Shown piece by piece: positions 3,584 through 47,678 of a stretch of DNA of 56,312 nucleotides. How positions within the stretch are numbered: position 1 is the first letter of the stretch; every line of letters starts with the position of its first letter. A program made the translations under genes and the position numbers. The notes below the pieces were generated by a model. That model searched no databases, had not been told where the DNA came from, and worked only from the letters and a program-made list of their open reading frames with translations. Origin of the DNA: a virus; IMG/VR virus record IMGVR_UViG_3300031539_000037; one strand, written 5' to 3'.

Positions 3584-3637
3584 TTACTTAATATTCTTAA
3601 ATGCTTTGTAGCCATTAGCTAATTGCTTGAGGGTCAT
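3584..3637 (-). CDS. 17-codon mini-ORF MTLKQLANGYKAFKNIK
   Basis: It is ATGA-coupled to the stop of the upstream gene and ends just before the SD of the ATPase gene. It is a paralogue of the N-terminus of 2114-2284. Confidence 0.3.
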   Translation of the reverse strand: MTLKQLANGYKAFKNIK

Positions 3638-4092
3638 AGCAACTCGCCCCCCGAATTTAGCTTATAGTTGAACTTGGGCTCTTGTGTGGTAACTGTCAGG
3701 CCGGGAACGTCTTTAAGGTCTATTTCACCATTAAGGACAGCCTTTTTTAGATCCATTTTCTTTAATACTTCAATAGTATGGTAATAAGGCAGGCCTTCAT
3801 GTTTACACCACTCTATAATGTCTGAATCTAAAAACCCCCAACTATCCGGCATAGCCCGATAAGCACACCAGCCCGCAGGTGTCTCGATTTTCCGTTCACC
3901 TGATTTAGATAAGTTATCTTCAAGCGAAAGTTCTAAACTCTTAATATCCTCTGTAAGTTCCTTAATCTTTTCGTTATTATCCTTGCATAGAGTTTCGTTC
4001 TGTCTTTGCAGGATCAAGATGTCCAGTTTGCGTTTAGCGATTCCCTTCAAGTCATCTTCTACTGTCGTTTTTAATACATCAATGTTAATCAT
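3634..4092 (-). CDS. Coiled-coil protein, Gp157/Gam-like (tentative)
   Basis: 152 aa with an N-terminal coiled coil. Its position is immediately upstream of the recombination ATPase. Confidence 0.4.
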   Translation of the reverse strand: MINIDVLKTTVEDDLKGIAKRKLDILILQRQNETLCKDNNEKIKELTEDIKSLELSLEDNLSKSGERKIETPAGWCAYRAMPDSWGFLDSDIIEWCKHEGLPYYHTIEVLKKMDLKKAVLNGEIDLKDVPGLTVTTQEPKFNYKLNSGGELL

Positions 4093-8718: not shown

Positions 8719-8793
8719 TGGCGAACCGAGTAGGAATCGAACCCACGTCTACTAGTCTGGAGCTAGTCGTTCTGCCATTATTACTATCGGCTC
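8719..8793 (-). tRNA. tRNA-Trp: tRNA-Trp (anticodon CCA)
   Basis: 75 nt. Acceptor GAGCCGA/TCGGTTC, anticodon arm ACTAG-CTCCAGA-CTAGT, T arm GTGGG-TTCGATT-CCTAC, G73 and an encoded CCA. The D stem is weak. Confidence 0.7.
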
Positions 8794-8794
8794 A

Positions 8795-8869
8795 TGGGGT
8801 GACAGGAGGAATTTGCATCCTCGTCTCTACATTCACAGTGTAGGGTTCTAACTACTGAACTACTGCCAC
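8795..8869 (-). tRNA. tRNA-His: tRNA-His (anticodon GTG)
   Basis: 75 nt. Acceptor GTGGCAG/CTGTCAC, D arm GTTC..GAAC, anticodon arm CTACA-CTGTGAA-TGTAG, T arm GAGGA-TGCAAAT-TCCTC, C73 and an encoded CCA. There is no encoded G-1. Confidence 0.75.
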
Positions 8870-8956: not shown

Positions 8957-9364
8957 TTATTTAATCCAATACTTATCATTTTTGAATTCAATAATATTAT
9001 TCTCTAAAAGTTCGGCTACCAATCTATTTAAACTTCCATGTATTTTTTGGTGCTTTGAATTATTTTCATAAATATATAAATTTTCTGGATTATTATTTTT
9101 GTTGTTCATGTCTATGTGGTGAACCCCTTCATTGTTCCTTAATTCACGACCTATCCTCTCCTGTGCTATCACTATATAGGGAGTTCTTTTTCTGTTCCGT
9201 ATTTTTTCGGATTCACATAATTTTTTACGATTTTTTTCACGATATAGTTTATTAGTGGCTAAGGCTCTTTTGTGATTCTTTTTATACCACTTTTTGAGAT
9301 ATTCCCTGGCTTCTTCTCTATGCTTTTCACGATATTGTTTTCCATATTCCTTTTTATCAAACAT
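8957..9364 (-). CDS. HNH endonuclease
   Basis: 135 aa with N-terminal basic Y-repeats and GVHHIDMNNKNNNPENL...HQKIH. Confidence 0.7.
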   Translation of the reverse strand: MFDKKEYGKQYREKHREEAREYLKKWYKKNHKRALATNKLYREKNRKKLCESEKIRNRKRTPYIVIAQERIGRELRNNEGVHHIDMNNKNNNPENLYIYENNSKHQKIHGSLNRLVAELLENNIIEFKNDKYWIK

Positions 9365-9372
9365 AAATCACC

Positions 9373-10512
9373 TCAACGCAGCCAATACTTGTCGTTTCCT
9401 ATATAGAATTTCTTATTGAAGAAAGTAATAAATTCTGGCATAATCCGGTTAATAGTCCCGTCTTTGGCCAGTCTCATGTGTAATATACCGCCACCGATAT
9501 GCGCTTGTATTTTCTTTTTTCTCATATAGGTAGTCTGGTCTTGATAACAACCCATTTGTATAACATGGACTTCACGCGGAAAACAATAATCTATTTTATG
9601 ATAGTGACCTAAAAGTAATACTCTGGGCTTTTCTCCACCTTGCAGACTTTCTACTATTTTTTGTGGAGTATAGGAAAGGGCATAAGCAGTACCACCACCA
9701 CCATGCATTATTCTCATCCAAGATTTGCCCCCTATCCCTTCAAATGGTATATCACACTCCAAATAACCTATATATTCTAAATCTTTTCTCCCTGCCTGTT
9801 CGGCTTTCATTTGAGTATACTCGCCGATATTAAGACGTTCCCTCTGGGCATACCAGCCTTCATGATCATCGCCAGCAATAAACTTTGTCAATATACCTTT
9901 TCTTTGAGGATAATTATTTATGAAATATTCTATTTGTGGAGTTACCCCTACAGTATTTATTTCATATTTGTTAAATCTGCATTCACCATCGATATAATTT
10001 CCACCATGATAGACTAATTTAATACCTTCATCTTCAAAAATATCGTATATTAGATTGAGTTCTTTTAATCTCTCGAACTTAGAACATAGATGAGTATCAG
10101 ACACGAAACCTAATTTGATTTTGTCACCCTTCCAATATTCGATATTTAATTTTTGAGTATTACCTGGCTTTGGTTCTTTTGCAAGTTCAATTTTATTGTC
10201 AACATAATTTATATTATATTTATTTTCTTCTAACTCCTGAATTATTCTTCTTACTTCTTTTGGAATCAATCCACTCTTATCACTTAATTCCTCTATAGAA
10301 AATGTGCCTTTTGTTAATAGTTTTTTTAATGTATCATTTTTAGGTATCTTATTTTTATCCTCATGTCCTTTAGCCCCTTCAGTCGGGTAGCCCCCGCAAT
10401 CCAGGCAATGATATCTCTGCTTGCCAACAGGGTCAAATCCTCTCTTGGCTAAATTAGTCGAGCCACATATATTACCGTCTTTTTTTCTAAGATAACATTT
10501 AAAACCTGTCAA
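9373..10512 (-). CDS. Zinc-ribbon + HTH + calcineurin-like metallophosphoesterase fusion
   Basis: 379 aa. N-terminal CxxxxxxxC...CxxC, then an HTH-like SIEELSDKSGLIPKEVRRII, then the phosphoesterase motifs SDTHL, GGNYIDG, GDDHEG and LGHYH. Confidence 0.65.
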   Translation of the reverse strand: MTGFKCYLRKKDGNICGSTNLAKRGFDPVGKQRYHCLDCGGYPTEGAKGHEDKNKIPKNDTLKKLLTKGTFSIEELSDKSGLIPKEVRRIIQELEENKYNINYVDNKIELAKEPKPGNTQKLNIEYWKGDKIKLGFVSDTHLCSKFERLKELNLIYDIFEDEGIKLVYHGGNYIDGECRFNKYEINTVGVTPQIEYFINNYPQRKGILTKFIAGDDHEGWYAQRERLNIGEYTQMKAEQAGRKDLEYIGYLECDIPFEGIGGKSWMRIMHGGGGTAYALSYTPQKIVESLQGGEKPRVLLLGHYHKIDYCFPREVHVIQMGCYQDQTTYMRKKKIQAHIGGGILHMRLAKDGTINRIMPEFITFFNKKFYIGNDKYWLR

Positions 10513-10536
10513 ATTATTCTTTTCACCTCCTTTTAA

Positions 10537-10731
10537 TTACCATTCAAACTCGAAATATGATTCGGTAACATCATCAGTATCATCTTCATATTCTTCTTTA
10601 TCTATCTCTAATTCATTCTTACAATGGGAACATTTAGTTACATATTTACTTTCATCATAAGCAAGGCTAAATAATATTACTGGCCAGCCACAAAAGGGAC
10701 AAGTAAAAGATAATTTATCTGTGTCTGGCAT
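10537..10731 (-). CDS. Small zinc-ribbon protein
   Basis: 64 aa from the internal ATG just after the thioredoxin stop. CPFC...CSHC, with an acidic C-terminus. Confidence 0.45.
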   Translation of the reverse strand: MPDTDKLSFTCPFCGWPVILFSLAYDESKYVTKCSHCKNELEIDKEEYEDDTDDVTESYFEFEW

Positions 10732-10732
10732 C

Positions 10733-11212
10733 TTAATATCCCAGTGGTGGTGGACAAACCCCTCCCCCACAACCTTCTTTCTTATCTTTCTTTTCTTCCT
10801 TTAAAAGTAAATTGATTTTGTCCTGTATCACAAGGAAAGGTTGAAACCCTATCATCCGGTCAACCTCTTTTCCATCCCGGTAGAAGATTATAACTGGCAA
10901 TCCTCTTAATGGTCTGAAGTTATTAAGGAACTTTCTTTTGCTCTTATCGACATTAATCTTATACCATTCGATTTTATCTTTCTTGTATTGCTGATTGAAT
11001 ATCATTAATCTAATAATGACTGGGTCTAACAGCTTACAATACTTGCACCAAGAAGCCCAGAAGTCTATAACGATTAGCTTGTCAGACTCCAATACTTCTT
11101 GAAAATTGTCAGCAGTTAAATCTATAGGCTTTACTTCTTCACTGCATAAACCGGATATAGATAATATGGTAATTAGAAATAAGGTTATGATGATTGTTTT
11201 AAATATTTTCAT
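10733..11212 (-). CDS. Secreted thioredoxin
   Basis: 159 aa with a signal peptide (MKIFKTIIITLFLITILSISGLC) and the active site FWASWCKYCK. Confidence 0.8.
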   Translation of the reverse strand: MKIFKTIIITLFLITILSISGLCSEEVKPIDLTADNFQEVLESDKLIVIDFWASWCKYCKLLDPVIIRLMIFNQQYKKDKIEWYKINVDKSKRKFLNNFRPLRGLPVIIFYRDGKEVDRMIGFQPFLVIQDKINLLLKEEKKDKKEGCGGGVCPPPLGY

Positions 11213-11224
11213 AACTTACCTCCC

Positions 11225-12019
11225 TTACTCCTCATATATCGGAAACGTTGAACCATCGGGATATATCTGGACGGTCTGACAGTTACATCTATGATTATTG
11301 ACCCATTGTTTAGTATATTGATACAATTCCGTTAAATCGACTATTTCATCTTTGTTTATATCAGCATTAAGCCCTTCACACCCTTCACATAAGCCTCTAC
11401 AAAAATATGAACCATTTTCACTATCCCAGGTATATTGATCACCTGCCGAAGAAGCCAAGACTTGGAAGCCTTCTCTATTTAATAGGTCAAGTGAAAAGTC
11501 AGTGAATGGTTCAAGTACAACATCTTTATCGATGAAGTTCCCGGCATGGCAGGATTCGATAAAAATTACCTTCATTCCCGATATCATACTTAAATTTTCC
11601 TCTAATTCGTGAACTGTAATTGCAGACTCCAACGTAGATTGATAATCAGTCGGAGTAATGATAGGAATATCATTTTTTACCCCACCATGCCCCATGTAAT
11701 AAATATAGGACACATCATTATCATCAGCATCAGCGAATATATTGAGAAGCCCATTTAAAATATTCTCTTTTGTAGCATCTAAATTGGTCAATTTTTCTAT
11801 ATATTCAAACTCTATTTCATCTTCACCAAACTTACACTTGCTAAATAGGCTTTCCAGTTTATCTGTATTTTCTGCCGGTGATGGTAAGGTCCAGCCATTC
11901 TCATATTCCCCTACACCTACAAAGAAAGCACGGTAAGCAGGGTCATTGGGTATTGGTATAACGGGAGTAATACAACCTGTTAGGAATAGGCATAGTATAA
12001 TGATAATAAGTTTTTTCAT
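11225..12019 (-). CDS. Caspase-family (C14-like) peptidase lipoprotein
   Basis: 264 aa with the lipobox LFLTGC. His/Cys dyad motifs YYMGHGG and IFIESCHAGNF. Confidence 0.7.
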   Translation of the reverse strand: MKKLIIIILCLFLTGCITPVIPIPNDPAYRAFFVGVGEYENGWTLPSPAENTDKLESLFSKCKFGEDEIEFEYIEKLTNLDATKENILNGLLNIFADADDNDVSYIYYMGHGGVKNDIPIITPTDYQSTLESAITVHELEENLSMISGMKVIFIESCHAGNFIDKDVVLEPFTDFSLDLLNREGFQVLASSAGDQYTWDSENGSYFCRGLCEGCEGLNADINKDEIVDLTELYQYTKQWVNNHRCNCQTVQIYPDGSTFPIYEE

Positions 12020-12468
12020 ATGTTTTTCCCTATAAAATCATATAGATCTACACATCTTCTTATCCAACCCCTAATCTTTGCCTTATTGTTTTTATCAGAA
12101 AAATATTTAATTCTTTTCAATAGTAAATCTTTCCAGTCGGATGGATCTTCTTTTAAGGCTATCCCTAAAGCACCTATACCCGGATTAACTGCAAATTCAA
12201 ACATAACAATAGCTACTTCTTGCGGATAGTTATAGCACTTTGCCCTATCCCAATATTTATCTTTATATGTCTTTTCACATATTTCAAAGGCTTCCTCTTT
12301 CTTACCTTCATCAATTAACCTTTTCATTTCAGCTACTTCTTGCGGATTATACTTTGACGATATACCCCAAATAGTTAATTTGCCTGGGTCATCTTTTTCA
12401 TCACTAATAAAACCTTCCCACTTCAAGGTAAATTTAAGTGCTTCATCAAAATCATTATTATTTTTCAT
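12016..12468 (-). CDS. GH108-type lysozyme (endolysin)
   Basis: About 150 aa. The N-terminal FTLKWEGFISDEKDDPGKLTIWGIS matches the GH108 EGG...DpGG.T.yGI pattern. The ATG at 12468 has GGGAGGA upstream. Confidence 0.65.
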   Translation of the reverse strand: MKNNNDFDEALKFTLKWEGFISDEKDDPGKLTIWGISSKYNPQEVAEMKRLIDEGKKEEAFEICEKTYKDKYWDRAKCYNYPQEVAIVMFEFAVNPGIGALGIALKEDPSDWKDLLLKRIKYFSDKNNKAKIRGWIRRCVDLYDFIGKNI

Positions 12469-12562
12469 ATATGATATTCCTCCCAATAATAATTAGCACA
12501 GAAGTGAAGGATTGTTGCCCTTCCGTTTTACCCTGACTGACTGCCAGTTCCCATGCTAGAGT

Positions 12563-13693
12563 TTAATGTTCAGTATCGTCTTTTTGTAATATTTTCAGTT
12601 TTTCTCTGTATGGTTTTTGAAACACTGTATATGCAAGACCGCGCCAGATTAAAAATTCCCTGATTGACATGCCGTTTATTGCAAGTTGACCGCCACTGAT
12701 ATAGTTGTAGCCATAAACTAAAACGCCATGTTCTTGTGCGATTAAATTACCATAAACATCGAATACTCCAGAACCACTTGAACCGGGAGCAGCAGCAATA
12801 TCCATCTTAACCTGGTCATTCCAGATTATTCCATAACTTTCGCCGAGATCAAGGTCAATCTGATTAATACGACCTTTATCAATAGTGCGGAATAATCCTA
12901 AAGGTGCACCGCAAATCCAAATTTCCTCGCCGACCTTGCAGGGTGTACCTCTCCATACCGCATAAGGTAATCCAAATACATTATCAATTTTAAATACCGC
13001 ACAATCGATAGCCCTATCGCTAGCAACTAAGGTTGCCTTTACTTCATATAATTGTTTTTCAGAATGTTGGATATAGATTCCATCAGTATCAACTTCATAA
13101 TATACCTGTCCAACTGGTTTCGCCTTTTCTCTGATTTCAAATGAAGGTGGATAGGTACTGGTGATTATATCTTTGTCGTCATAGACATAAAGCGGTTTTT
13201 TGAATGAATTGTAATTGATCAGCATTTCTACCACATGCCAGTTAGTAATGCCAATGGTCTCACCGTAAATCTTTTTGCCGTCAATCATTTCAGGTTTATC
13301 AAATTCTTGAGACAGGATTATTACCCCGCTACCAGTTATCTCTATTGCTTCCGGTTCTCCATATTTGCCGAACTCTACTTTATACCCTTCCTCATACCAT
13401 TTTTTTTCATCTCCAGTTAAACCATAGGGCATATTATCTTTTAATGTGCCTTCTTCGAGTTTATACCAGTTGAGTGCACGGAAATATTTGTTGGCCTTGA
13501 CTATCACTTTGATGGATACTGACTTGATAAAATCGAGGGTGTCAATATCAGGTACAGGTGGATTTGGTTGGGTTTCAATCTTAGGATAGCTTTCTTGCTT
13601 GATAGGATTTGATATTTCGTCTTGGGCGAATGTTGCACATATACAACTAAAGACTATTAATACAGCAACACAAAATACAAATATTTTCTTCAT
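12563..13693 (-). CDS. Secreted trypsin-like (S1) serine protease
   Basis: 376 aa with a signal peptide ending ATFAQD. Triad context ITNWHVV, AIDCAVFKID and APGSSGSGVF. Confidence 0.7.
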   Translation of the reverse strand: MKKIFVFCVAVLIVFSCICATFAQDEISNPIKQESYPKIETQPNPPVPDIDTLDFIKSVSIKVIVKANKYFRALNWYKLEEGTLKDNMPYGLTGDEKKWYEEGYKVEFGKYGEPEAIEITGSGVIILSQEFDKPEMIDGKKIYGETIGITNWHVVEMLINYNSFKKPLYVYDDKDIITSTYPPSFEIREKAKPVGQVYYEVDTDGIYIQHSEKQLYEVKATLVASDRAIDCAVFKIDNVFGLPYAVWRGTPCKVGEEIWICGAPLGLFRTIDKGRINQIDLDLGESYGIIWNDQVKMDIAAAPGSSGSGVFDVYGNLIAQEHGVLVYGYNYISGGQLAINGMSIREFLIWRGLAYTVFQKPYREKLKILQKDDTEH

Positions 13694-13716
13694 TGTTTTT
13701 TTTCACCTCCTTTCGT

Positions 13717-13926
13717 TTAATTTTTTATCTTTCTAAGAATCCTCAATCCCAATCTATAGTTCTTACTACCGTGAGCAACCTTCAGCCAGTTTATATAGTC
13801 GGGATTTTTCTTTAATTCTTCTTCGAGCCATTTTTCATAGCCTGACTTCGTTGGGTTTACTCGATCTAGAAGAGTCAAGATACCGATTATACCTAAGAAA
13901 AAACCAATCACTGCAATGAATAACAT
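13717..13926 (-). CDS. Small membrane protein (holin candidate)
   Basis: 69 aa with an N-terminal TM helix and a basic C-terminus. It is the first gene after the promoter-terminator unit. Confidence 0.45.
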   Translation of the reverse strand: MLFIAVIGFFLGIIGILTLLDRVNPTKSGYEKWLEEELKKNPDYINWLKVAHGSKNYRLGLRILRKIKN

Positions 13927-13946
13927 TCAATTTTCTCTCCTTTTCC

Positions 13947-13991
13947 AAAAAAAAATGACCAGACAAAAAGGCTTTCACCTTTTCAATCTGG
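13947..13991 (-). terminator. Intrinsic terminator in the leader of the lysis cassette
   Basis: Minus strand: CCAGA-TTG-AAAAGG-TGAAAG-CCTTTT-TG-TCTGG, then TCA and T9. Confidence 0.65.
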
Positions 13992-14030
13992 CCATCTAGT
14001 GGCTCTCATTTATTCAATTTTATTACATAT

Positions 14031-14059
14031 ATTATACACTAATTTACCAACATTTTCAA
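14031..14059 (-). promoter_or_regulatory. Near-consensus sigma70 promoter (TTGAAA-17 nt-TATAAT)
   Basis: Minus strand: -35 at 14059-14054 and -10 at 14036-14031, with a 17-nt spacer. It lies in the intergenic gap after the stop at 14068. Confidence 0.6.
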
Positions 14060-14067
14060 CATTATTT

Positions 14068-14352
14068 TTATTTCTTGTCATTCATCCGTTGTATCTCTGT
14101 CGTTAATTTGTCTATATTATGAACTAGATGATTGCTGATTACAGCCTTTAATTCGTTAACCGATTCTGTCACTTTTACTGTATTATCCGAATCTTCCTTA
14201 ACTATTTCAGCCAATTTTGGTATTTCATTTTTAAACATATCCATAAAATTAATAACAAAATATTTAACCAACCAAATAATTAAACATATTAATACTCCTG
14301 ATATAGCTATTGCTCCATATTTTGATACAGCATTTATAATAATTTCTTCCAT
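14068..14352 (-). CDS. Membrane protein (holin-like candidate)
   Basis: 94 aa with the TM segment AIAISGVLICLIIWLVKYFVINF. Confidence 0.45.
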   Translation of the reverse strand: MEEIIINAVSKYGAIAISGVLICLIIWLVKYFVINFMDMFKNEIPKLAEIVKEDSDNTVKVTESVNELKAVISNHLVHNIDKLTTEIQRMNDKK

Positions 14353-14367
14353 TACATCAACTCCTTC

Positions 14368-15210
14368 TTATGAAATAATAATATGATCCTTACCTTCCAG
14401 TTGCCACAATAAGTTGCCTTCTACCGGATGCCTTGCTACCACCTTTACTAATTGATATTTATCTGCATATTGAGGATTATTGATTGGTACAAATTTATAT
14501 ATAAGCTTCATAAAGTTATCTTCGCCATTAAGAGAAGCAGTCCATGACTGATTACTAAAGCCCTTCCAGTTAGACTCCGGACTAATTTTATATACCGTAA
14601 TAGCGTGTCCATAACCTTCCCATTTTTCTATCAACTGGTCGCCTACTTGTACCAATATCTTCTTTTGCCAATATACTTCGACAAACCAGCATAACCAGTA
14701 ATTGCACCATTCAGAAAGGTATTGACAGTGAAGTCTTGCAAATCCATCGCAGTCATCCCGGTAATATCCGAGTTCATCACAAATACCTTCTGCATTTTTA
14801 AGGCATTTCAGAAATTCTTCCGGTGGAGCCCAATAATCTATCTTACCCCAAACTTGCATATCTGAAGTCCATTGAAACAGATATTCCCCATTATCTTTTT
14901 TCTGAAATAATATCAGATATAGCTTTCTATCACTTACTTCACCCTTCTTGATAGTTAATTTTTCTAAGGTTTCATTCCAGAGGTCAACCAGTATTATATA
15001 GTTATCCCATACTTCTGAATTATAGTCACTTAATATCCATTTCCCTTTATTCCAATCCACTAATGGTATATACCAATTTAGCGGATAATAATCTTCCCAT
15101 TTTGGCTTATTAGGGTCAGGCACAGGATCAGGGGGAGGTTTGGGTTTAGATTTACATCCTGACAAAAATATTCCTACTCCGATTAATAGAATTAATAATA
15201 TCCAAATCAT
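14368..15210 (-). CDS. Lipoprotein with a transglutaminase-like cysteine-peptidase motif (tentative)
   Basis: 280 aa with the lipobox FLSGC and a Pro-rich linker. DDCDGFARLH and GHAITVY resemble the Cys/His motifs of BTLCP-type peptidases. Confidence 0.4.
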   Translation of the reverse strand: MIWILLILLIGVGIFLSGCKSKPKPPPDPVPDPNKPKWEDYYPLNWYIPLVDWNKGKWILSDYNSEVWDNYIILVDLWNETLEKLTIKKGEVSDRKLYLILFQKKDNGEYLFQWTSDMQVWGKIDYWAPPEEFLKCLKNAEGICDELGYYRDDCDGFARLHCQYLSEWCNYWLCWFVEVYWQKKILVQVGDQLIEKWEGYGHAITVYKISPESNWKGFSNQSWTASLNGEDNFMKLIYKFVPINNPQYADKYQLVKVVARHPVEGNLLWQLEGKDHIIIS

Positions 15211-15282: not shown

Positions 15283-16845
15283 TTAATATAATATTCCAAA
15301 TAGATAGACAGTATTCCCGGCTACCCCTGATTGATTTGCCACTCGTGCCTCTATAACAACTTCTGCAGCATAAGACACTAATTTTAATGGAGTCGTATTT
15401 GGTATTGGTTGTAAGATAACAGAATCATATTGAGCACCCAGATTGCTTAATGTGTTTGCTGGAATAAAGTCTGTTTCTGCACCATTTGCACCTATTGATA
15501 TGGTTGTAGTTGCTCCCGCATCACCTGCTGCCACGACTATCGCATGGGATAAAATACATCTTTTCCCAACTGGAACAGTATATATAACGGTATCTGCATC
15601 AGCATTAAAATCTACTGTCGTACTACTCAATAGACATAAAGCACCAGTGATTAAACCCGTGCCACCATAAGCAACGCCTAAAGGTGTGGTAAGTCCAGCG
15701 AGTGAAGTTATATCTGTATTAGCACCGCTTTTGGCTAAAGTTGCCTCGAAGGTAGCATCTAAATCAGTATCAGTATTCTGAGTATGCTTTTTAGTTACCG
15801 CATCAGTAACTTCAGCATCTGTATTTGTTGCCATTTCAATTATTCCAGAAGCATTATTAATTTTGACTATTTTCCCAGCAGTAAAATCTCCAGTTTTCGT
15901 AACCATGTTAAGATAAGGAATCACTTGAGTCCATGAATCATCTACGAAACAGATGTACATTTTTAATGTATCTGTGGCAATATAAACCTGATTAATGGTT
16001 GGGGTTGCTGTCTTTGCAGCATCTAACCCCACCATTATATTGGCGAGAAATAGTCGCTTATCGGTTACTCCTGTTGCCACTCCACCCGAAACAACTACCC
16101 TTGATAACTCAATACTATTTGCGGGAATTGAAGAAGTGCTTATTATTGCACTGATCACCCCTACTGAAGTTAAATATAATTTATAAGTACCATTTTCTAA
16201 TGCTGCAACACTATATTGCTGGGCAGCCCCATAATAAGTTTCAAGATTATCGATTAAAGCGAACCCTTTCTCAATATCTAATAATGAAGCATCGCCTCCA
16301 TTAATACTCACTCCAAAAGCACCAGTAGTTAGGTAAACAACTCCATTTCCATGAAGCCCGGTAATCCATTTTGCGATAGAAGTTGAAGGCTCCTGATTGG
16401 TGGCTATTATCTGAAAAGTAACTGCTCCTTCTATGGCACTGTTAGGCATGTGGACTCTTACCATTATTTTCCTATAACAGTCATAAGGTATATCACCTAT
16501 AGCAAGTGGAGCATTTAAACCTACCGGCTGAAATTCAGTCATAGCATCGTCGGTATATCCTACAATACTTCCCCCAGCCCCGCCTGCATGGATAGTAAGG
16601 GATTTTATCTCAACCCAATGTTGTGTAGTAATGTTTTTCACCTCATCACCATTATCATCTCTGGCACTTACCTTGACAGATGTCATTGGGGAGGAAGTTT
16701 GAATCTTTCCCTTATCATTCCAAACGTGATATTCTGTACCTGCTTCTAATAATAGATAAGTTCCTGCATCACCTGTGCCATAATTTATTGCAGTTACTTC
16801 TGCTGTATCTGTCGCATTCCATATTGAAGGATTTGGATCTGCCAT
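15283..16845 (-). CDS. Tail fibre protein
   Basis: 520 aa, rich in Gly/Thr/Ala. Carries the fibre motif GANTDITSLAGLTTPLGVAYGGTG. Confidence 0.65.
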   Translation of the reverse strand: MADPNPSIWNATDTAEVTAINYGTGDAGTYLLLEAGTEYHVWNDKGKIQTSSPMTSVKVSARDDNGDEVKNITTQHWVEIKSLTIHAGGAGGSIVGYTDDAMTEFQPVGLNAPLAIGDIPYDCYRKIMVRVHMPNSAIEGAVTFQIIATNQEPSTSIAKWITGLHGNGVVYLTTGAFGVSINGGDASLLDIEKGFALIDNLETYYGAAQQYSVAALENGTYKLYLTSVGVISAIISTSSIPANSIELSRVVVSGGVATGVTDKRLFLANIMVGLDAAKTATPTINQVYIATDTLKMYICFVDDSWTQVIPYLNMVTKTGDFTAGKIVKINNASGIIEMATNTDAEVTDAVTKKHTQNTDTDLDATFEATLAKSGANTDITSLAGLTTPLGVAYGGTGLITGALCLLSSTTVDFNADADTVIYTVPVGKRCILSHAIVVAAGDAGATTTISIGANGAETDFIPANTLSNLGAQYDSVILQPIPNTTPLKLVSYAAEVVIEARVANQSGVAGNTVYLFGILY

Positions 16846-16860
16846 ATTATCACCTCACTT

Positions 16861-17985
16861 TTAAAAAGGATAAACTCCGACACTACTAGGATAGAACCCT
16901 GCCTCAACTGCTTCCACTACCCATATTTTCTCGCCTGCTTCTGTATATTTACCGAGATAAATTATTCCACCATTTGAATTATTACCTAATATATAGAAAT
17001 AACCACCTTTACTAGCTACTCCAAATACCCTGCTAAACTCGACTGGAAAATCCGTTTCCCCTGCACCTAAAGCATAGGGAACAGTCCAAGGATCATTAGC
17101 ATAATCAGTCCCCATAACTTTTGTATTTCCACTTGCATAAGCAAGAGAGGTCAAAGAAGTTTTGGAGGCTGTTACCGCATGAGAAACTAATTCACTCCCA
17201 GTTGAATATCTCCACATTTCTATCGTATCGCTTGTACTATTTACAATATAAAAACGGTCATTATCATAAAAGGCCATGCCATAAAACGAATTTGTCCAAG
17301 GGTCTAATTGAAATGAACCTAATATCTGCAGGGTTGAAGGACTTCTTTTCATAATCATATTATTATCAGAATCTGTAAATTCATGCGTAAAAATAAAACC
17401 ATCACTTGATATGGCAATGTTTCTGATTTGATAAGAAGAACTAAGCACGATAACTTCATTACCCAAAGAATCATATTTTATTATTTTATGCGGACTATAA
17501 AAGGCAACATAATAGACATTACCCGAACTGTCCACACAAAGCCCATTGTAAAGAAGATTGTATTTCGCTGCCGTCCAACTGGTGACTTCCACCCCTGCAG
17601 TCGTAAATGATTTTATATACCCCACTTCATTGCCACCCGAACCTGTCCAGTAAGTGATGAATATTTCTCCTGTAGCCGTAACTGTTACTGTTACTGGCGG
17701 TAATATAATCGGCAATTCTTTACAGCCATTTTTATATAATATTCTCACGGTATCACCTACCTCTAAATTAGGATTTCTAGCAAGAGTAAAAACCTTTGGG
17801 TATGCTTTCGTTTCCCCAGCTATAAATACATCATAACTACCATCACCATTAACTATTACCACTTCACCAGTTACCACAGATCCCCGATGGATTATATTTC
17901 CTACGGTATCTCTTATGATTGAATTAATTGGTCTCAACATGATCAAACCCCCTATAATTAACAATACAATTAATAATTTTTTCAT
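16861..17985 (-). CDS. Tail-associated beta-propeller (NHL-like) protein with a hydrophobic N-terminus
   Basis: 374 aa. The N-terminal domain is paralogous to 17990-18301. The C-terminus has repeated blades (SSGNVYY, SSDGFIF, and so on). Confidence 0.5.
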   Translation of the reverse strand: MKKLLIVLLIIGGLIMLRPINSIIRDTVGNIIHRGSVVTGEVVIVNGDGSYDVFIAGETKAYPKVFTLARNPNLEVGDTVRILYKNGCKELPIILPPVTVTVTATGEIFITYWTGSGGNEVGYIKSFTTAGVEVTSWTAAKYNLLYNGLCVDSSGNVYYVAFYSPHKIIKYDSLGNEVIVLSSSYQIRNIAISSDGFIFTHEFTDSDNNMIMKRSPSTLQILGSFQLDPWTNSFYGMAFYDNDRFYIVNSTSDTIEMWRYSTGSELVSHAVTASKTSLTSLAYASGNTKVMGTDYANDPWTVPYALGAGETDFPVEFSRVFGVASKGGYFYILGNNSNGGIIYLGKYTEAGEKIWVVEAVEAGFYPSSVGVYPF

Positions 17986-17989
17986 TTAT

Positions 17990-18301
17990 TTATACCCCTA
18001 ACGAATTAACCGAAGCGGCTACTTCTATATATTGAATATCATTTAATACACCACATATAATCGGTTTCTCTTTTATTCCATATTCAAAAAGTATTCCCAC
18101 GGTTTCATCAACTACATAATCAGGTTCTTTATATATGGTCAAAATATTTGGATAACTTTTACCACTTCCAGCAATTTCAACATCATATTTACCATTTCCA
18201 TTATCAGTAGTAACTTTTCCGGTCATATAAGTACCTCGATGTTTGATATTGCCTACCGCATTTCTTGAAGTGGCTATGTTAAATCTAAGCATAAAAAACA
18301 C
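17990..18301 (-). CDS. Small tail-module protein, paralogue of the N-terminal domain of 16861-17985
   Basis: 103 aa. VGNIKHRGTYMTGKV..NGNGKYDVEIAGSGKSYP aligns with VGNIIHRGSVVTGEV..NGDGSYDVFIAGETKAYP. Confidence 0.5.
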   Translation of the reverse strand: MFFMLRFNIATSRNAVGNIKHRGTYMTGKVTTDNGNGKYDVEIAGSGKSYPNILTIYKEPDYVVDETVGILFEYGIKEKPIICGVLNDIQYIEVAASVNSLGV

Positions 18302-27750: not shown

Positions 27751-28284
27751 TTAAAAATTAATCCCAAAGAAGATCGCATTAGCTTCTTCTACCGCTACTC
27801 CTGACGAGCCCCCCAAACTAATAAAAGCATTAACATAAACGGCAAAACCTGTATCTACGCATTGCGTTTGATTTCCTGCTTTATACCATATACCCGTAGA
27901 AGTGCCAGGAGTATTTTCCACTTCGCCACCCTCATAATATATCCCAATATAATCACCTTCTACTACGTCTAAATTAACTGAAACAATATTATAATCTACT
28001 ACTAAAGCCCCTACATCCTCAAAGTCGTGAGCAGTCAAAGTGTTTCCATCCGCTGAAAAAATAGCAATTATGCCTTTTGTAGCCGAAGCTCTCATATATA
28101 CCTCAACAGTTGTAATAGTTCCTGTTCCATCTGCAGGAGTCAATTTATCAACTTGTGTATACCCAGTTGCGCCTGTTAATATATCGCCATTTATCGCTGG
28201 ATTTCCGATAGTAATATCAACCGCCAAAACTATTAACTGAAATATACACAATGTAATAGCAAGTATTAATAATATTTTTTTCAT
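27751..28284 (-). CDS. Signal-peptide protein
   Basis: 177 aa beginning MKKILLILAITLCIFQLIVLA, with a beta-rich body. Confidence 0.5.
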   Translation of the reverse strand: MKKILLILAITLCIFQLIVLAVDITIGNPAINGDILTGATGYTQVDKLTPADGTGTITTVEVYMRASATKGIIAIFSADGNTLTAHDFEDVGALVVDYNIVSVNLDVVEGDYIGIYYEGGEVENTPGTSTGIWYKAGNQTQCVDTGFAVYVNAFISLGGSSGVAVEEANAIFFGINF

Positions 28285-28293
28285 ATCTTCTCC

Positions 28294-30699
28294 TTATTGA
28301 AAATCTTTGGCTAATTGAGCATACCATTGCTTATCTGCGGTCTTATAAGTTAAAGCTAAAATATCTTCTGCACCTGCATCGGTTGTTAAAACTCCTAAAG
28401 TTCCACCTGACCACTTAACTAATTGTTGAACGGTTTGAGTATCTGTACCATCATCGCTTATGTTTACTGCTGTTCCAGCAATCGCCAATGCCTTTGTAGT
28501 TGCTACTTGAATATGATTCTCCGAAGTTCTGATAGCATAATAAATAGTATCTGCCACTAAAGGGGTTGGGATAACACCAGAAGTTTTAAATCTAATCCTT
28601 GCACCTGTAGGAATATCAACAGTTAAATCTATAATTTCTGTATCTATATGAACCTCTGCTTCAATAATGGTTGCATCTGATTGAGTTACAATTTCATCAA
28701 GTATTCTTGAACCAGTACCGTCTTGGGTAATGATTACTTGAGCATTTAATGCACCAGTAGGAGCAGTTATCGTAATAGTAGGATTATGTGCAGCGGTTAA
28801 GATTGCCTTATTGCTGTTTCCTAAATTCCAAGCTACGGCAGTTCCAGAAGTCAATACTTGTTCTGTAAAGTTAATACTGTGTGCTCCTGCTTGGAGTTGC
28901 CCACCTAAATCAGGGTCAGTATCTTCTTCTAAATTAGCCATTAAAGTTCCTGTGGTTGGTAAGGTTATAGCAGTAGCGGCGCTTGTGGTAATCGAAAGCG
29001 TATCAGCACCTACCATAGTGATAGTTTCACCTGCTATACTTAAAGTCCCTGGTATTACAAAGTCCCCATCTTCATCTACGCTAAACAATTGAGTCTTTGA
29101 GGCTTGTGTCCCTTTGGCCACCCCAAATACCTGTTGGTCAGCGGTAGGCGTAGCACCAACAATAATTTGATACATTGCGTCAGTTGTAGCAGTACAGCCA
29201 GTACCGGCAGTAAGGAACAGTAACTGGTTATCAACACCCTCGTCATATTGAACTAACCAATCATCATCAGTACCAAAGACTAAATCAAGGTCATCATTCA
29301 CAATACCCCATACTATGTCATCTTCTGCACCCCTATTAACCAGTTCACTGGTCTTATTCGGGGAGAAATCACAATTTATTGTCTTGATTCTCGTATTAAA
29401 ATCTCCGGTTAGATTTAATCCGTTTAATTGGAGATATTGAGTAATGGTAACTGTATCACCTGCTTCTTCACTTTCAGCCAATTCTCCCGTAGCAAGAGTT
29501 ATCGTTCCTGCCGCAACCGAAACAATGGTATAAGTACCATCATTAGAAGTAGACCCTGTAACAACAATATCTTCTCCTTCTTCAAATCCAGCTACAAGGA
29601 ATTGAGCAGCAGACTGGGTGATGGTATCTGCCCCTTCACCACCATCTACAAAGGCTATATCGGTTCCTATGAGGTCTCTGTCATCATAAGATTTACAATT
29701 AGCAAGGGTTATATCATAACAATCTTCAAGGTTTATTCCCCTGTAATAATTATTGTATGATATAAGTCCTGTAGCAATAACATTGTCACAATCTGCAAAG
29801 TGGAATCCACCCCTAGTGGCAGGAGAGGGACTATTGAGTGTTGCTACACAATTAGTAATAGTAGAATCTGCAAGGCCCAAAATATTAAATCCGTTAAGAC
29901 CGTTCCCATCAGCGATACAATTATCAATAACAGCCCCCGATTGGTAATTTATAGTAATACCATGATCTGAATTATCCCAGGCTTTGATGTTACTATATGA
30001 ATTATGTTGGTTAACTATTTGTTCGAGGGTGTTACTGCCCCTGTCGTTAAAACCACAACATCCATTATCCCAGCAATAGATATCTTGATAGGTATTATAT
30101 TGACTTCTTCCTGCCGTATTAGTACTAGGATGGAATCCCTCATGGGCATTGTCATGCATATAGATATTTTTACATACGGCATTATTAACCTCAAAAAGAC
30201 CTATACCATAATAACCACCATTTTTTGCCTCTACGTTTTCTATCAGCAAATAATTAACTGATTCGTGGGCAAATATGGGAGAAATGTATTCTGTATCATC
30301 TGTTTGAGCATCCCCGTCTATCGTCATATCTTTGATGGTAACGTAATCACAATCGTCAATACGAAAACCGTAGGCATCTGCAGTTATGACTATCGTTTTA
30401 CCTATTCCCTCGCCGATAAAGCTAATTGATTTAGCAACCGATAATATATCATCCAGTTCATAATATCCTGCCCTTAAATAAATTGTATCTCCTGCACTTG
30501 CGGCATTATAAGCATCCTCAATACAATTACCAGCCCAGGGGTCAATATCCGTTCCTGTACCTGTGGCATAGTCTTGAGGATACACGGTATATTGTTGCTG
30601 ATCTTCTCTATTTGCACCTAGTGGAATGACTGCAAAAACATTTATATCAAATAAACTTATTATTAGTAAAATTATTAAAATTATATTTAATTTTTTCAT
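28294..30699 (-). CDS. Signal-peptide parallel beta-helix protein (pectate-lyase fold; depolymerase/adhesin-like)
   Basis: 801 aa beginning MKKLNIILIILLIISLFDINVFA. PbH1-type repeats (NGGYYGIGL.., DNGCCGFND.., GNGLNGFNI..). It then carries the shared DIAFVDGG module. Confidence 0.65.
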   Translation of the reverse strand: MKKLNIILIILLIISLFDINVFAVIPLGANREDQQQYTVYPQDYATGTGTDIDPWAGNCIEDAYNAASAGDTIYLRAGYYELDDILSVAKSISFIGEGIGKTIVITADAYGFRIDDCDYVTIKDMTIDGDAQTDDTEYISPIFAHESVNYLLIENVEAKNGGYYGIGLFEVNNAVCKNIYMHDNAHEGFHPSTNTAGRSQYNTYQDIYCWDNGCCGFNDRGSNTLEQIVNQHNSYSNIKAWDNSDHGITINYQSGAVIDNCIADGNGLNGFNILGLADSTITNCVATLNSPSPATRGGFHFADCDNVIATGLISYNNYYRGINLEDCYDITLANCKSYDDRDLIGTDIAFVDGGEGADTITQSAAQFLVAGFEEGEDIVVTGSTSNDGTYTIVSVAAGTITLATGELAESEEAGDTVTITQYLQLNGLNLTGDFNTRIKTINCDFSPNKTSELVNRGAEDDIVWGIVNDDLDLVFGTDDDWLVQYDEGVDNQLLFLTAGTGCTATTDAMYQIIVGATPTADQQVFGVAKGTQASKTQLFSVDEDGDFVIPGTLSIAGETITMVGADTLSITTSAATAITLPTTGTLMANLEEDTDPDLGGQLQAGAHSINFTEQVLTSGTAVAWNLGNSNKAILTAAHNPTITITAPTGALNAQVIITQDGTGSRILDEIVTQSDATIIEAEVHIDTEIIDLTVDIPTGARIRFKTSGVIPTPLVADTIYYAIRTSENHIQVATTKALAIAGTAVNISDDGTDTQTVQQLVKWSGGTLGVLTTDAGAEDILALTYKTADKQWYAQLAKDFQ

Positions 30700-30745: not shown

Positions 30746-32053
30746 TTATTTATGATAGTAAATTGTTATATCTTCATTTTGTACAATAGTGGCACAATCT
30801 AAAGTATTATTAGTTGTATCTGCTTTACCAGCTATTTCGCCAAATACTGCTACACCGTCAACTGTCTTGTAATATATATCTGCTTCTGCACTAATAGCAT
30901 TAGGGAGTCCAATTATATCGCCTATACCTACATCCCAAGTTCCACCAGTACTAGCTGCAACAATAGCAGTTATATTACAAAATGCTTTAGCTCCAGCGGT
31001 AGTACCATTAACTAGATTTATTTCTTCAGTTTGTCCAGTAGTTCCATCAGCTAAAGTTCCAGTTATGGTAATAGTTCCAGCAGCTTCACCGTCTCCAGTT
31101 GTAGTAATATTTCTTGCATAATCAGGCATTTTTATAATACTACCAATTTTATCCCCATCGCCCGTTGCATCTTTAATGATATATTCGTTATCAGTAGCAT
31201 CAATATCCATCAAATGTAATTCATGATTGATAGAAGTACCCGCAGCATCGTCAACATAGCCTTGAGTGACTAATTTGTCGTTATCGCCTGCACCGGTAGA
31301 GATTGAAGCTATTGCAGATTCAACGCCAGCAATGGTAATTTTTAATTGATCATCAGTAGCCCAGCTTATCTTATTATCAGCATCCCTTCCGACATATAAA
31401 GCAGCGTTAATAATGCTTGTAATATCTGTATTTGCTCCACAAGCTGCAATGTCAGTACCGATTTCCAAATCTAAATCTTCTTTTACTTGTGCAAGTGTTC
31501 TTACCGCATAGGTATCGTCAGCAGTCAATTTAATAAAACTTGCAGATGCATAAACTAATGCAGAGATATTCGTTAATGCTGTATCTAATGGTTGATAAGT
31601 TCCTGATATATCTGGAACATCTCCTGCTTCCAATGCCGCCCAAGTCGGAGCTTGTCCTGCCGCACCTGTTCCTATCATTCTTAAAAATTTATTACTTGCT
31701 GCGGTATTCGGAGCCAGTCTGGTCAGTACATTTGAAGCACCGCCATAATATGTATCAAATTCAGCATCAGAACCTAATGTCATGGTTACACCACCAATTA
31801 CAAAACCCGTAGATGCTGTACCAGATGTCACCGTTCCTACAGTTGTTATACTTGCACTACCAGCAATTGGTGAATAGATTGTGCTTATTGCAACACTATT
31901 AACGTAATAATCAAATCCACTTGGTACATTGATATCTCCAGTTAAATCTGAAGTAGGACCTAGATTAACAGCACTGAATGCTGCAAAAACATTTGTGCCT
32001 ACACTCATGAATAAGAGTGAAAACACCATTAAAAATACAATTAATTTCTTCAA
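30746..32053 (-). CDS. Signal-peptide fibre-like protein
   Basis: 435 aa beginning MKKLIVFLMVFSLLFMSVGTNVFA. It has a GANTDITS fibre motif. The C-terminal domain is shared with 32459-33046. Confidence 0.55.
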   Translation of the reverse strand: MKKLIVFLMVFSLLFMSVGTNVFAAFSAVNLGPTSDLTGDINVPSGFDYYVNSVAISTIYSPIAGSASITTVGTVTSGTASTGFVIGGVTMTLGSDAEFDTYYGGASNVLTRLAPNTAASNKFLRMIGTGAAGQAPTWAALEAGDVPDISGTYQPLDTALTNISALVYASASFIKLTADDTYAVRTLAQVKEDLDLEIGTDIAACGANTDITSIINAALYVGRDADNKISWATDDQLKITIAGVESAIASISTGAGDNDKLVTQGYVDDAAGTSINHELHLMDIDATDNEYIIKDATGDGDKIGSIIKMPDYARNITTTGDGEAAGTITITGTLADGTTGQTEEINLVNGTTAGAKAFCNITAIVAASTGGTWDVGIGDIIGLPNAISAEADIYYKTVDGVAVFGEIAGKADTTNNTLDCATIVQNEDITIYYHK

Positions 32054-32079: not shown

Positions 32080-32445
32080 TTAATTTTTCTCATCATTTCT
32101 TAATTCAATTAGAACAGTTATCTTATAGATATTGCCATCATAGAAGGTATTGCTATAGGTAAACATATCTTCGGCAATCTGCATTTCACCTACTAACTGC
32201 ATGATACAATTTTTTAGTTTAATATTGCTTCCATTAATGTTATCAATTAAAAAAACAGTTAAATCTGTCTGTTTTTGTTCGGGTTCTTCTATTGCTTCTT
32301 CTTCGGTTTCTTGTAATGTAGTCGCTGGGACATTATATTTCATATCCCCATTCTGTCCGTTTCCATTCACGCCTAAAAAACATAACATCATAATCAATAT
32401 CGCGATTATAGTTATATTTCTTGTTTTTTTCCCCCACTTAATCAT
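32080..32445 (-). CDS. Membrane-anchored protein
   Basis: 121 aa with the N-terminal TM segment NITIIAILIMMLCFLGV. Confidence 0.45.
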   Translation of the reverse strand: MIKWGKKTRNITIIAILIMMLCFLGVNGNGQNGDMKYNVPATTLQETEEEAIEEPEQKQTDLTVFLIDNINGSNIKLKNCIMQLVGEMQIAEDMFTYSNTFYDGNIYKITVLIELRNDEKN

Positions 32446-45418: not shown

Positions 45419-46009
45419 CTAATTTATCTGATACTCAAAACCATTTTCCATTAATTTATCTTTGATTGCCCTCAATCTTTCAAATACATCCTTTCCATCA
45501 ATCCAAATACGAATTTGAATCTCGTTATCATGTAGAAATAAACCACTTATATTTTCACTGCCAATCAACTTATAAATTTTGTCTATTTCGGTAGCCATTA
45601 TATATGGTTTAACATTTAATATCTCAACACTCATCAATCCAAACGGATCTTCCCATGTATCGTTTTCAGAATAATGTGTAATGTGTTTCTCCCTACGGTT
45701 TTCTTTCCAAAAACCTTCCCATTTAGTCTGATTAATTGCTTCCTTTTCTAACCTTTCATCGTCTTTATCTATTCTAATAGTAATGTCTCCAAATGGATCA
45801 TTGACGATCTTCAAATTCACACTTTCATACTTCCACCAATTATATATCTCAACTTTTTCATCTAATGTTCGGCTTCTGAACCATTCAAATAAAGTGTCTA
45901 CTTCTTTCGGCCAATACAAATCAGCAATTTCTGTATTTGACATTCCCAAAACACTACAACTTATACTAATCAACAATGCTAAAATCAAAATACTTTTAAA
46001 TATTCTCAC
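45419..46009 (-). CDS. Signal-peptide protein
   Basis: 196 aa with a GTG start, beginning MRIFKSILILALLISISCSVLG. Confidence 0.55.
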   Translation of the reverse strand: MRIFKSILILALLISISCSVLGMSNTEIADLYWPKEVDTLFEWFRSRTLDEKVEIYNWWKYESVNLKIVNDPFGDITIRIDKDDERLEKEAINQTKWEGFWKENRREKHITHYSENDTWEDPFGLMSVEILNVKPYIMATEIDKIYKLIGSENISGLFLHDNEIQIRIWIDGKDVFERLRAIKDKLMENGFEYQIN

Positions 46010-47482: not shown

Positions 47483-47678
47483 CGCTTTTCGCCTCCTTCC
47501 CCTTCGCCCACTTTTCATAATCTTTTTGAAACACACTTATATACTCGCCACACTCTCCACACTTGCCAACATATTTTTCCATGAATGGGCAGGGGTGCAA
47601 GTCTATATGTAACTTTACCAGGCTATTGCAGGCTGGGCATTCATAGATATAATTAGCCATCTTGTTTTTCCTCCTCAA
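47472..47678 (-). CDS. Small zinc-ribbon protein
   Basis: 68 aa with CPAC...CGECGE. Confidence 0.5.
   Translation of the reverse strand: MRRKNKMANYIYECPACNSLVKLHIDLHPCPFMEKYVGKCGECGEYISVFQKDYEKWAKGKEAKSDES

Follow-up and report, generated by a model that had tools for sequence, protein, structure and literature searches.

The way in which phages breach the outer membrane of their host is understood for phages of Proteobacteria, which use spanins or disruptin, and for phages of mycobacteria, which use LysB. Spanins and disruptin are third-step lysis proteins that handle the outer membrane, and spanins do so by fusing membranes. LysB, an esterase acting on mycolyl-arabinogalactan, is an extra enzyme of the lysis cassette that cuts the link between outer layer and wall. 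This article addresses the region 9373-15210 of IMGVR_UViG_3300031539_000037 (56,312 nucleotides; this whole stretch of DNA is hereafter called the window), in which envelope-directed exported enzymes, including two putative cysteine peptidases with lipoprotein signals, are set into a conventional lysis core, i.e. a holin-like membrane protein (s94) and a cytoplasmic GH108 endolysin. Unlike LysB, the candidates of the window are peptidases; they are homologous neither to it nor to spanins or disruptin, and any likeness to these systems would be functional only.

Classical spanins require an outer-membrane lipoprotein, and their function depends on periplasmic disulfides, which in turn depend on Dsb enzymes (PMC6139136). 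A survey of spanins listed 91 phage genomes devoid of them, 20 of which came from cyanobacterial hosts, and considered phages without spanins as an open problem (PMC6139136). In the canonical sense, no spanin pair is recognisable in the window either, as the initial annotation had stated. Indeed, its coding strand carries only two canonical lipoboxes, both on the cysteine peptidases (264 and 280 amino acids, aa), and no embedded open reading frame (ORF) for a small lipoprotein (o-spanin) was found.

The window is a tailed-phage genome in which all coding sequences lie on the minus strand. The terminase gene (42404-43717) is followed by genes for the portal, prohead protease, HK97-type capsid, tape measure and tail proteins, then by a fibre-like gene and directly by 9373-15210. 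This is the canonical lysis position, straight after the tail-fibre genes of a terminase-portal-capsid-tape-measure module. The region holds the lysis and late-accessory genes of an uncultured siphovirus-like phage that probably infects a member of the Atribacterota. None of 50,697 GenBank phage genomes matches it at the DNA level, and the portal of the phage shares only about 25% identity with the portals of Bacillus and Geobacillus phages. Because no GenBank phage is related at this level, the gene context was drawn from metagenomic contigs, i.e. a comparison set of about 25 related metagenomic loci (labelled L003 and so on).

A recurrent slot for anchored cysteine peptidases

In many of these loci, the lysis genes follow the same order: a fibre-like gene, a gene encoding an anchored cysteine peptidase, an s94-like gene encoding a protein with a single transmembrane domain (sometimes with further small genes of this kind) and an endolysin gene. 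The peptidase slot harbours a gene for a transglutaminase/BTLCP-like protein in the window, L007, L014 and L015, a gene for a caspase-family protein in L018, L019, L028, L030, L036, L038 and L039, and both in tandem in L034. The BTLCP-like gene always lies between the fibre genes and the s94-like and endolysin genes (window, L007, L014, L015, L034). The caspase gene is linked to lysis genes in the window, L018, L019, L028, L030, L034, L035, L036, L038 and L039; in the window, it comes immediately after the endolysin gene. In L014, L018 and L019, a gene for a signal-peptide protein of 185-190 aa separates the fibre gene from the cysteine peptidase gene.

The endolysin itself varies among the loci that carry the slot, belonging to the GH108, glucosaminidase or Peptidase_M15_3 family. 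Globally, about 10-14 independent cassettes have a gene for an anchored cysteine peptidase beside their holin-like and endolysin genes. That unrelated peptidase folds replace each other at a fixed position, also when the endolysin is exchanged, argues more strongly than anything else for an anchored peptidase as part of the lysis cassette. The initial annotation had regarded the exported enzymes of the region as one set. The link between cysteine peptidases and lysis genes is indeed recurrent, but these enzymes are not a single co-inherited battery, the serine protease of the window moving separately.

The fibre-like gene that borders the cassette upstream, the last structural gene (15283-16845), encodes a 520-aa protein matching PHROG 11393 (tail fiber, 4e-6). 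Its C-terminal 116 aa are 79% identical to the product of the fibre-like gene preceding the BTLCP-like gene in L015.

The peptidase that follows it in the window is a 280-aa putative lipoprotein (14368-15210) with an LSGC lipobox, a Pro-rich linker and a transglutaminase/BTLCP-like cysteine-peptidase domain (C154, H202, S219/N220). Its family is tiny (33 homologues in 5.8 billion sequences; eight cluster representatives below 1e-10 among 1.84 billion). C154, D155, H202 and N220 are invariant in a 28-member alignment and S219 is conserved in at least 90% of the members. The family profile matches LapG (4U65_E, E = 1.2e-3) across the DYWxxPxE...GDCEDYA motif, which includes the catalytic Cys, and its remote profile matches are PF06035, PF04473 and PF01841 proteins. 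With an AlphaFold2 (AF2) model (predicted local distance difference test, pLDDT, 77.5), Foldseek retrieves vasohibin (VASH1, 2e-3, prob 0.97), LapG, protein-glutaminase and factor XIII, and a fold search of BFVD with the same model gave no significant match. A role as a peptidoglycan endopeptidase of the NlpC/P60 type is judged less likely, as Foldseek gives vasohibin, LapG and glutaminase instead.

The initial annotation had seen here a lipoprotein with transglutaminase-like cysteine-peptidase motifs. The lipobox, the invariant Cys and His, the LapG profile match and the fold comparison agree with this, and the protein is predicted to be a transglutaminase-like cysteine peptidase at the superfamily level. 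In contrast, its membership of BTLCP proper is not borne out by the PF06035 model: the single sequence matches no Pfam family, PF06035 included, at E <= 0.1. The family is a new small phage branch of transglutaminase-like peptidases.

LapG, the characterised protein nearest to the 280-aa family, is a periplasmic protease that cuts a periplasmic retention piece and thereby releases a surface protein held in the outer membrane. The 280-aa family shares the predicted fold with LapG/BTLCP (PF06035, Peptidase_C93) and with vasohibins. Its DYWxxPxE...G-DC-D/E-x-F/Y-A motif aligns with LapG, its Cys and His are invariant, and the protein is probably exported to the periplasm like LapG. Unlike LapG and vasohibin, it has an N-terminal lipobox or transmembrane anchor, the Pro-rich linker and an extra N-terminal helical part; unlike LapG/BTLCP, it is encoded by a phage, inside a lysis cassette. 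The third residue of the triad, located 17-18 residues after the His, is presumably Asp in LapG and Ser in vasohibin. At this distance, the 280-aa family has S219/N220, and the alignment designates either of them, not Asp, as the candidate. Most members carry a lipobox, and those of L007 and L015 have a plain transmembrane anchor. This interchangeability fits retention in the inner membrane.

The other cysteine peptidase of the window (264 aa, 11225-12019) carries an LTGC lipobox and a His111/Cys157 dyad. It scores above the Pfam cut-off for Peptidase_C14 (PF00656, 2.5e-13, 50.7 bits vs 21.4), and its GHGG and SCHAG motifs align with SGHGG and DSCHSG of metacaspase-1. Among 27 homologues, Cys16 of the lipobox, His111 and Cys157 never vary. 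The protein is thus a clear member of Peptidase_C14, the family of metacaspases and orthocaspases, and proteolytic activity is predicted; the caspase-family lipoprotein with an intact dyad described initially is fully recovered. The phage family is tight (at least 77 members) and absent from GenBank phages. Searches of the 50,697 GenBank phages by tblastn with this caspase and with the serine protease returned generic or fragmentary matches only, and scans of IMG/VR with the single sequences of both proteins returned nothing. A defence or anti-defence role was considered; PADLOC gives only generic matches to caspase and LmuA-protease domains, and this role was rejected because the proteins are exported.

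The GH108 muramidase (12016-12468), i.e. the endolysin, lacks a signal peptide and its stop overlaps the start of the caspase gene by 4 nt. It belongs clearly to its family (PF05838, 5.1e-15, 56.2 bits vs a cut-off of 21.2; PHROG 315, endolysin, 3.5e-16), as initially annotated. It aligns with the GH108-like structures 2IS5 and 2IKB, and the Glu of the E-G motif, which we take to be the catalytic residue, is kept (WEGF vs HEGG of 2IS5).

Two small membrane proteins, each with one transmembrane domain, had been annotated as holin-like. The first, s94 (94 aa, 14068-14352), has a charged helical C-terminal part. Genes for homologues of s94, or for proteins that look like it, are found just before or beside endolysin genes of three families (L008, L015, L018, L019, L030, L034, L036); in L008, L015, L018 and L030, they are directly upstream of the endolysin gene. 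As it matches no holin family in Pfam or PHROG, it is a holin candidate by position only. The charges flanking its transmembrane domain do not point to one topology, its L008 homologue has weak matches to Rz-like spanin PHROGs (3e-4 to 5e-2), and s94 may be an Rz-like i-spanin. The second, s69 (69 aa, 13717-13926), is a signal-anchor protein whose homologues lie upstream of the serine protease gene in L003, L007, L008 and L017, about 3.7 kb from the lysis genes in L008. Since the serine protease travels as its own module with small exported proteins, s69 is more likely a partner of this module than a holin of the cassette.

L003 (482-1168), compared with 13717-14352 of the window, belongs to a near-identical strain (downstream genes 97-100% identical) in which both small membrane proteins have diverged. 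The counterpart of s94 differs in its N-terminal half, which is of the type found in L008, and that of s69 is 76% identical. This comparison marks the holin-like genes as a recombination hot spot.

The serine protease module and the tagged thioredoxin

The third peptidase of the region, a 376-aa Sec-exported serine protease (12563-13693), belongs to the S1C (HtrA/DegS-like) type. Its N-terminus resembles a Sec signal ending in TFA, just before QD, and the protein matches Trypsin_2 (3.3e-12), so that the Sec-signal trypsin-like protease of the initial annotation stands. Its TNWHVV, DCAVFKI and PGSSGSG motifs correspond to the sites of the catalytic His, Asp and Ser in Deg/HtrA proteins, and these residues are invariant in 30 homologues. 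The AF2 model (pLDDT 82) matches the protease domains of AlgW, DegS and DegP in Foldseek (5e-11; for AlgW and DegS, 5e-11 to 1e-9). For all the enzymes of the region, profile and structure comparisons thus found catalytic residues that align with those of relatives or are invariant in their family.

Like DegS, AlgW and DegP, the protein has a protease domain of chymotrypsin fold, a His-Asp-Ser triad and a periplasmic location. However, no PDZ domain is found in Pfam at E <= 0.1, and the model has only short helices after the protease domain. It is therefore classified here by its HtrA-like protease domain and not counted among the canonical HtrA proteins. It further differs by an N-terminal extension that is conserved and specific to the family (about residues 45-140 of the model, mean pLDDT 60-93) and by its link with small membrane proteins (s69 and the 73-aa and 146-aa families of L008) instead of stress-response genes.

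The serine protease is a module of its own, separately mobile and with its own small membrane proteins. Indeed, genes for s69 and/or two further small exported proteins come before its gene in L007, L008, L010, L013 and L017, the protease gene is located about 4.5 kb from the lysis genes in L008, and the family spans phages of 32% to 65% GC. In the window, the best match to a sigma-70-like promoter of a 9-kb region (TTGAAA-17-TATAAT, 14031-14059, minus strand) lies in the 141-bp gap before the s69/protease pair. Promoter-like sites of this region do not exceed the shuffled expectation (44 vs 36.5 +/- 6.4), and the consensus used, that of sigma-70, may not be that of the host.

The last exported enzyme is a 159-aa thioredoxin (10733-11212). 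It has a hydrophobic Sec-type N-terminal signal and a WCKYC active-site motif, and it is a clear member of its family (PF00085, 3.7e-17, 62.6 bits vs a cut-off of 23.5; matches to Trx/PDI structures down to 1e-20). The secreted WCxxC thioredoxin of the initial annotation is therefore real. Its last 12 residues (10736-10771, CGGGVCPPPLGY) form a C-x-x-G-x-C-x-P-P-x-x-Y tag, and variants at least 90% identical end in NCDGGVCPPPEGY and similar sequences. The same tag, C-x-x-G-[VIF]-C-x-P-P-x-x-Y, located 3-6 residues from the stop, also ends anchored proteins of about 50 aa. Their genes lie right after the endolysin gene in L008 (2546-2707), right before the caspase gene in L029 (161-322) and right after it in L036 (about 2740-2891) and L038 (571-726). 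A weaker form of the tag follows GH108 in L028 (1723-1899), i.e. at the same position as the thioredoxin of the window. The tag has five matches in 681 kb translated in six frames vs one match in 20 shuffles. An IMG/VR scan for the back-translated motif returned nothing. An apparent caspase-tag fusion in L036 proved to be an artefact of a run of N, L038 having a separate 51-aa gene.

Outside the contigs of near-identical strains, no thioredoxin homologue was detected in the related loci. From its sequence, the thioredoxin looks like a tagged small protein of the lysis region in which a Trx domain has been inserted. Because this tag comes from a small exported family located next to endolysins or caspases, the enzyme most likely serves phage proteins, i.e. 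the Cys-loop tag or the Cys enzymes.

Small tagged proteins of L008 (53 aa), L029 and L038 resemble Rz1-type o-spanins in their size (about 50 aa), their anchor, the Pro and two Cys near their C-terminus, and their position beside the endolysin gene (L008) or the caspase gene (L029, L038). However, their PHROG match is weak (E = 0.048) and mainly covers the signal-peptide region, and the copy of the window has a whole thioredoxin domain and a non-canonical SGLC box. In two tagged-protein anchors (SGLC and LALC), a Leu occupies position -1 of the lipobox-like site.

Probable host and genomic surroundings

Three converging lines make the Atribacterota the probable host lineage. First, the nearest cellular homologues of the phage caspase (33-40% identity) are the C-terminal domains of PEGA/Big_2-caspase lipoproteins (e.g. 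HBY56762.1), encoded by contigs of low GC content, up to 218 kb long, whose annotation is Candidatus Atribacteria. Both are lipoproteins, but the phage protein is reduced to a lipobox and a catalytic domain (about 260 aa), without PEGA or Big_2. Second, the 379-aa protein encoded at the downstream border of the cassette (see below) has a cluster member at least 90% identical in a Candidatus Atribacteria metagenome-assembled genome (MAG; MCJ7790547.1). Third, the tetranucleotide usage of the window correlates with that of Atribacteria chromosomal loci (r = 0.73-0.87) as highly as with that of phage relatives, vs -0.19 to 0.38 for other MAG loci. The serine protease was rejected as a host indicator because its family spans phages of very different GC content; among its alignments in GTDB genomes, one is a true relative (a Bipolaricaulota MAG, 65% GC) and the others are generic S1 proteases.

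In four Atribacteria contigs, the caspase gene is two genes away from a gene for an OmpM-like SLH protein that matches Veillonella OmpM structures (6e-25). In L105, an LptC gene lies near the caspase gene, as does a gene for a clostripain-like C11 lipoprotein confirmed by Pfam; L061 and L040 have matching N-terminal sequences. More largely, the neighbourhood conserved among Atribacteria (L105, 596-9297; L042; L061; L040) includes the C11 lipoprotein, small lipoproteins, the PEGA/Big_2-caspase lipoprotein, a 313-aa secreted protein and the OmpM-like SLH protein. It may be a cellular locus for the processing of envelope proteins, from which the phage caspase originated.

OmpM homologues, i.e. 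OmpM-type protein tethers, have been reported in Atribacteria (bioRxiv 10.1101/2021.05.31.446380). The loss of OmpM is reported to detach the outer membrane of Veillonella without killing it, and the Lol system to be practically absent from Terrabacteria. Atribacter laminatus is reported to have a protein-dense outer layer and unusual Sec signals. The protein-rich or toga-like host layer suggested initially fits this probable host and its reported tethers; the disulfide stabilisation attributed to it is unsupported.

Downstream, the thioredoxin gene overlaps by 38 nt a gene for a 77-aa zinc-ribbon protein without export signal (10537-10770), which is probably not part of the envelope-directed set. 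The cassette is then bordered by the gene of the 379-aa protein (9373-10512), which is cytoplasmic, not exported, and combines an IS1-type Zn ribbon, a helix-turn-helix (HTH) and a metallophosphoesterase-like region, with a weak, sub-cutoff match to calcineurin-like phosphoesterases. Neither the zinc-ribbon gene nor this one figured in the initial annotation. In L028, a 414-aa homologue of the 379-aa protein is encoded after the lysis genes. Immediately downstream of these genes, a metallophosphoesterase-like gene is found again and again, i.e. in the window (9373-10512), L028 (1912-3156), L019 (9262-10059) and L008 (4003-4767), and it is fused to the IS1-type Zn ribbon and HTH in the window and L028.

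Elsewhere in the window, at least 15 proteins start with Sec-signal-like hydrophobic N-termini, including large ones encoded in the structural region, such as an 801-aa beta-helix protein and a 435-aa protein (16861-17985, 27751-28284, 28294-30699, 30746-32053, 32080-32445, 45419-46009, 47653-47940, 51074-53569). Such N-termini also occur on fibre-like proteins of relatives (L014, 6676-8886; L015, 1799-3394; L018, 6303-7439; L019, 6292-7107). They are odd for virion parts that are assembled in the cytoplasm and may be linked to two features reported for Atribacter laminatus, an extra membrane and unusual signal peptides. The 374-aa protein encoded by 16861-17985 has an N-terminal part of about 80 residues that is duplicated in the adjacent 103-aa gene (17990-18301, 49% identity), and the same pair is found in L007. 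The 831-aa signal-peptide protein encoded by 51074-53569 carries a partial solute-binding-protein family 5 domain (PF00496, 5e-15), which is unusual in a phage, and its gene is possibly host-derived.

Genes for tRNA-Trp and tRNA-His adjoin an HNH endonuclease gene (8719-8869, 8957-9364), and a second endonuclease gene, HNH/NUMOD3, is located near the other end of the window (53627-54376). The window also encodes a Gp3-like protein resembling recombination directionality factors (1e-44), a Mu Gam-like protein and a homologue of replication protein O (979-2130, 3634-4092, 49034-49753), and no integrase was seen among the ORFs of the window that were tested.

Possible roles of the anchored peptidases

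From the domain identities, catalytic residues, export signals, synteny and host pointers given above, we infer substrates, a timing and an effect on the outer membrane that would make the anchored peptidases lysis proteins. The two cysteine peptidases, BTLCP-like and caspase-like, would be made together with the lysis genes, and a lipid or transmembrane anchor would keep them at the periplasmic side of the inner membrane. Their substrates would be proteinaceous connections within the envelope, most plausibly the OmpM-type SLH tether between outer membrane and wall, so that the outer membrane would be shed after endolysin action. This route would replace Rz/Rz1-type spanins, because the hosts of this clade, reportedly devoid of Lol, could not sort the outer-membrane lipoprotein that spanins need. 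The PDZ-less HtrA-like protease and s69, as a separately mobile module, would also act in the periplasm, and the thioredoxin would supply thiol-disulfide chemistry to the Cys-loop tag or to Cys-dependent phage enzymes, not to a host layer. That anchored peptidases would in this way finish lysis where classical spanins cannot work is tentatively preferred here, at slightly less than even chances. The broader proposal, that they are a new class of phage lysis proteins cutting OmpM tethers, i.e. the spanin counterpart of Lol-less diderm Terrabacteria, with the tagged proteins (including the Trx-fused form) as accessories, is a good deal more doubtful.

Several observations weigh against the preferred reading. 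In four of about 14 contexts, the caspase gene is found in early regions, i.e. between RecT and DnaB in L013, between RNA ligase and NinG in L017 and L027, and directly after an RNA ligase gene in L062. The serine protease gene is surrounded by replication genes in L010 and L013, and several kb separate it from the caspase or lysis genes in L008, L017 and L027. At least the caspase and serine protease genes are therefore not obligate members of lysis cassettes. Proteases exported before holin triggering would act early, which would suit remodelling as well as lysis, and receptor-blocking lipoproteins, too, are typically encoded beside fibre genes. Furthermore, s94 and a tagged small protein could form a spanin-like pair of an unrecognised kind, in which case the peptidase route would no longer be needed. 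Finally, the bin labels of related contigs disagree (WOR-3, Bipolaricaulota, Eubacteriales, Micrarchaeaceae), so that an Atribacterota host is probable but not proven.

The main rival explanation, favoured by the early-region copies and the site next to fibre genes, is surface remodelling or superinfection exclusion. The initial annotation had offered, as an alternative, effectors that act on surface proteins of the host or of competitors, which may also apply. In a LapG-like manner, the peptidases would cleave or shed receptors or adhesins, thus blocking secondary infection, keeping progeny off debris or detaching cells from aggregates, and lysis would not need them. The genes llp and cor of T5 also abut fibre genes, and several adjacent fibre-like proteins of relatives carry signal peptides. 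BTLCP genes have been reported, with no function given, as frequently exchanged phage "AMGs" (auxiliary metabolic genes; PMC11283719), and the cellular BTLCP HvyA is reported to prevent capsulation, the capsule protecting against phage infection (PMC4241560). However, the peptidase slot is kept relative to the holin-like and endolysin genes and not to the type of fibre, the same fibre C-terminal domain occurring with either peptidase, and the window caspase gene overlaps that of the endolysin. We know of no protease-based exclusion system, and this explanation is considered rather unlikely.

The mosaic structure of the region could also mean that it gathers independent accessory genes (morons or AMGs) at a recombination-prone late/early junction, without common function; the PDZ-less DegS/AlgW-like protease would for example act in envelope-stress signalling. 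The variable gene positions, the diverged s94 and s69 counterparts of near-identical L003, the wide GC range of the phages carrying the protease and the promoter-like site before the s69/protease pair would fit such a collection. The associations themselves make it improbable: caspase and serine protease genes are repeatedly found together (window, L013, L017, L027), BTLCP-like and caspase genes form a tandem in L034, a tagged small protein (in the window, the Trx-borne tag) adjoins the caspase in the window, L029, L036 and L038, and the peptidase slot persists when the endolysin family changes.

It is still less probable that the proteases and thioredoxin are maturation helpers that process or fold the exported proteins of the phage itself (anchors, pro-pieces, disulfides). 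The numerous signal-peptide-like starts in the window, including those of large structural-region proteins, the fusion of the thioredoxin to a phage-specific Cys-loop tag and the 5-9 Cys of each exported enzyme would fit such helpers. Nevertheless, devoting three different classes of peptidase to self-processing would be unusual, many relatives encode the exported proteins but a single one of the peptidases, and no common cleavage motif was seen in the exported proteins.

The least probable explanation is that of the initial annotation, in which the thioredoxin would reduce a disulfide-stabilised host layer that the three proteases would then degrade: the thioredoxin is exported and encoded in the same gene block, and the probable host lineage has a protein-dense outer layer, but nothing indicates that this layer is cross-linked by disulfides, the probable hosts are strictly anaerobic, an exported Trx would lack an evident source of reductant unless the host has a DsbD/CcdA-type system, and the tag occurs on small proteins of related loci whereas thioredoxin homologues were detected only in near-identical strains.

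To judge from the collections and papers searched, four features are new, namely the slot that recurs in lysis cassettes and takes anchored cysteine peptidases of two folds, the tag, the Trx fusion and the probable Atribacterota host, and these sources suggest that lysis by cutting the protein links of the host outer membrane has not been described for phages. The locus defines a new phage branch of transglutaminase-like peptidases and a short C-terminal tag common to several exported lysis-region proteins, and it gives one of the earliest views, at the level of genes, of a phage that probably infects Atribacterota. Should the peptidases instead act on surface receptors, they would constitute, to our knowledge, the first protease-based exclusion system. 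The breaching of the outer membrane is not understood in OmpM-tethered diderms that do not sort outer-membrane lipoproteins, i.e. Negativicutes, cyanobacteria, Deinococcus-Thermus, Thermotogae and Atribacterota; for these, two unrelated cysteine peptidases occupying the same slot of the lysis cassette offer concrete, testable candidates.

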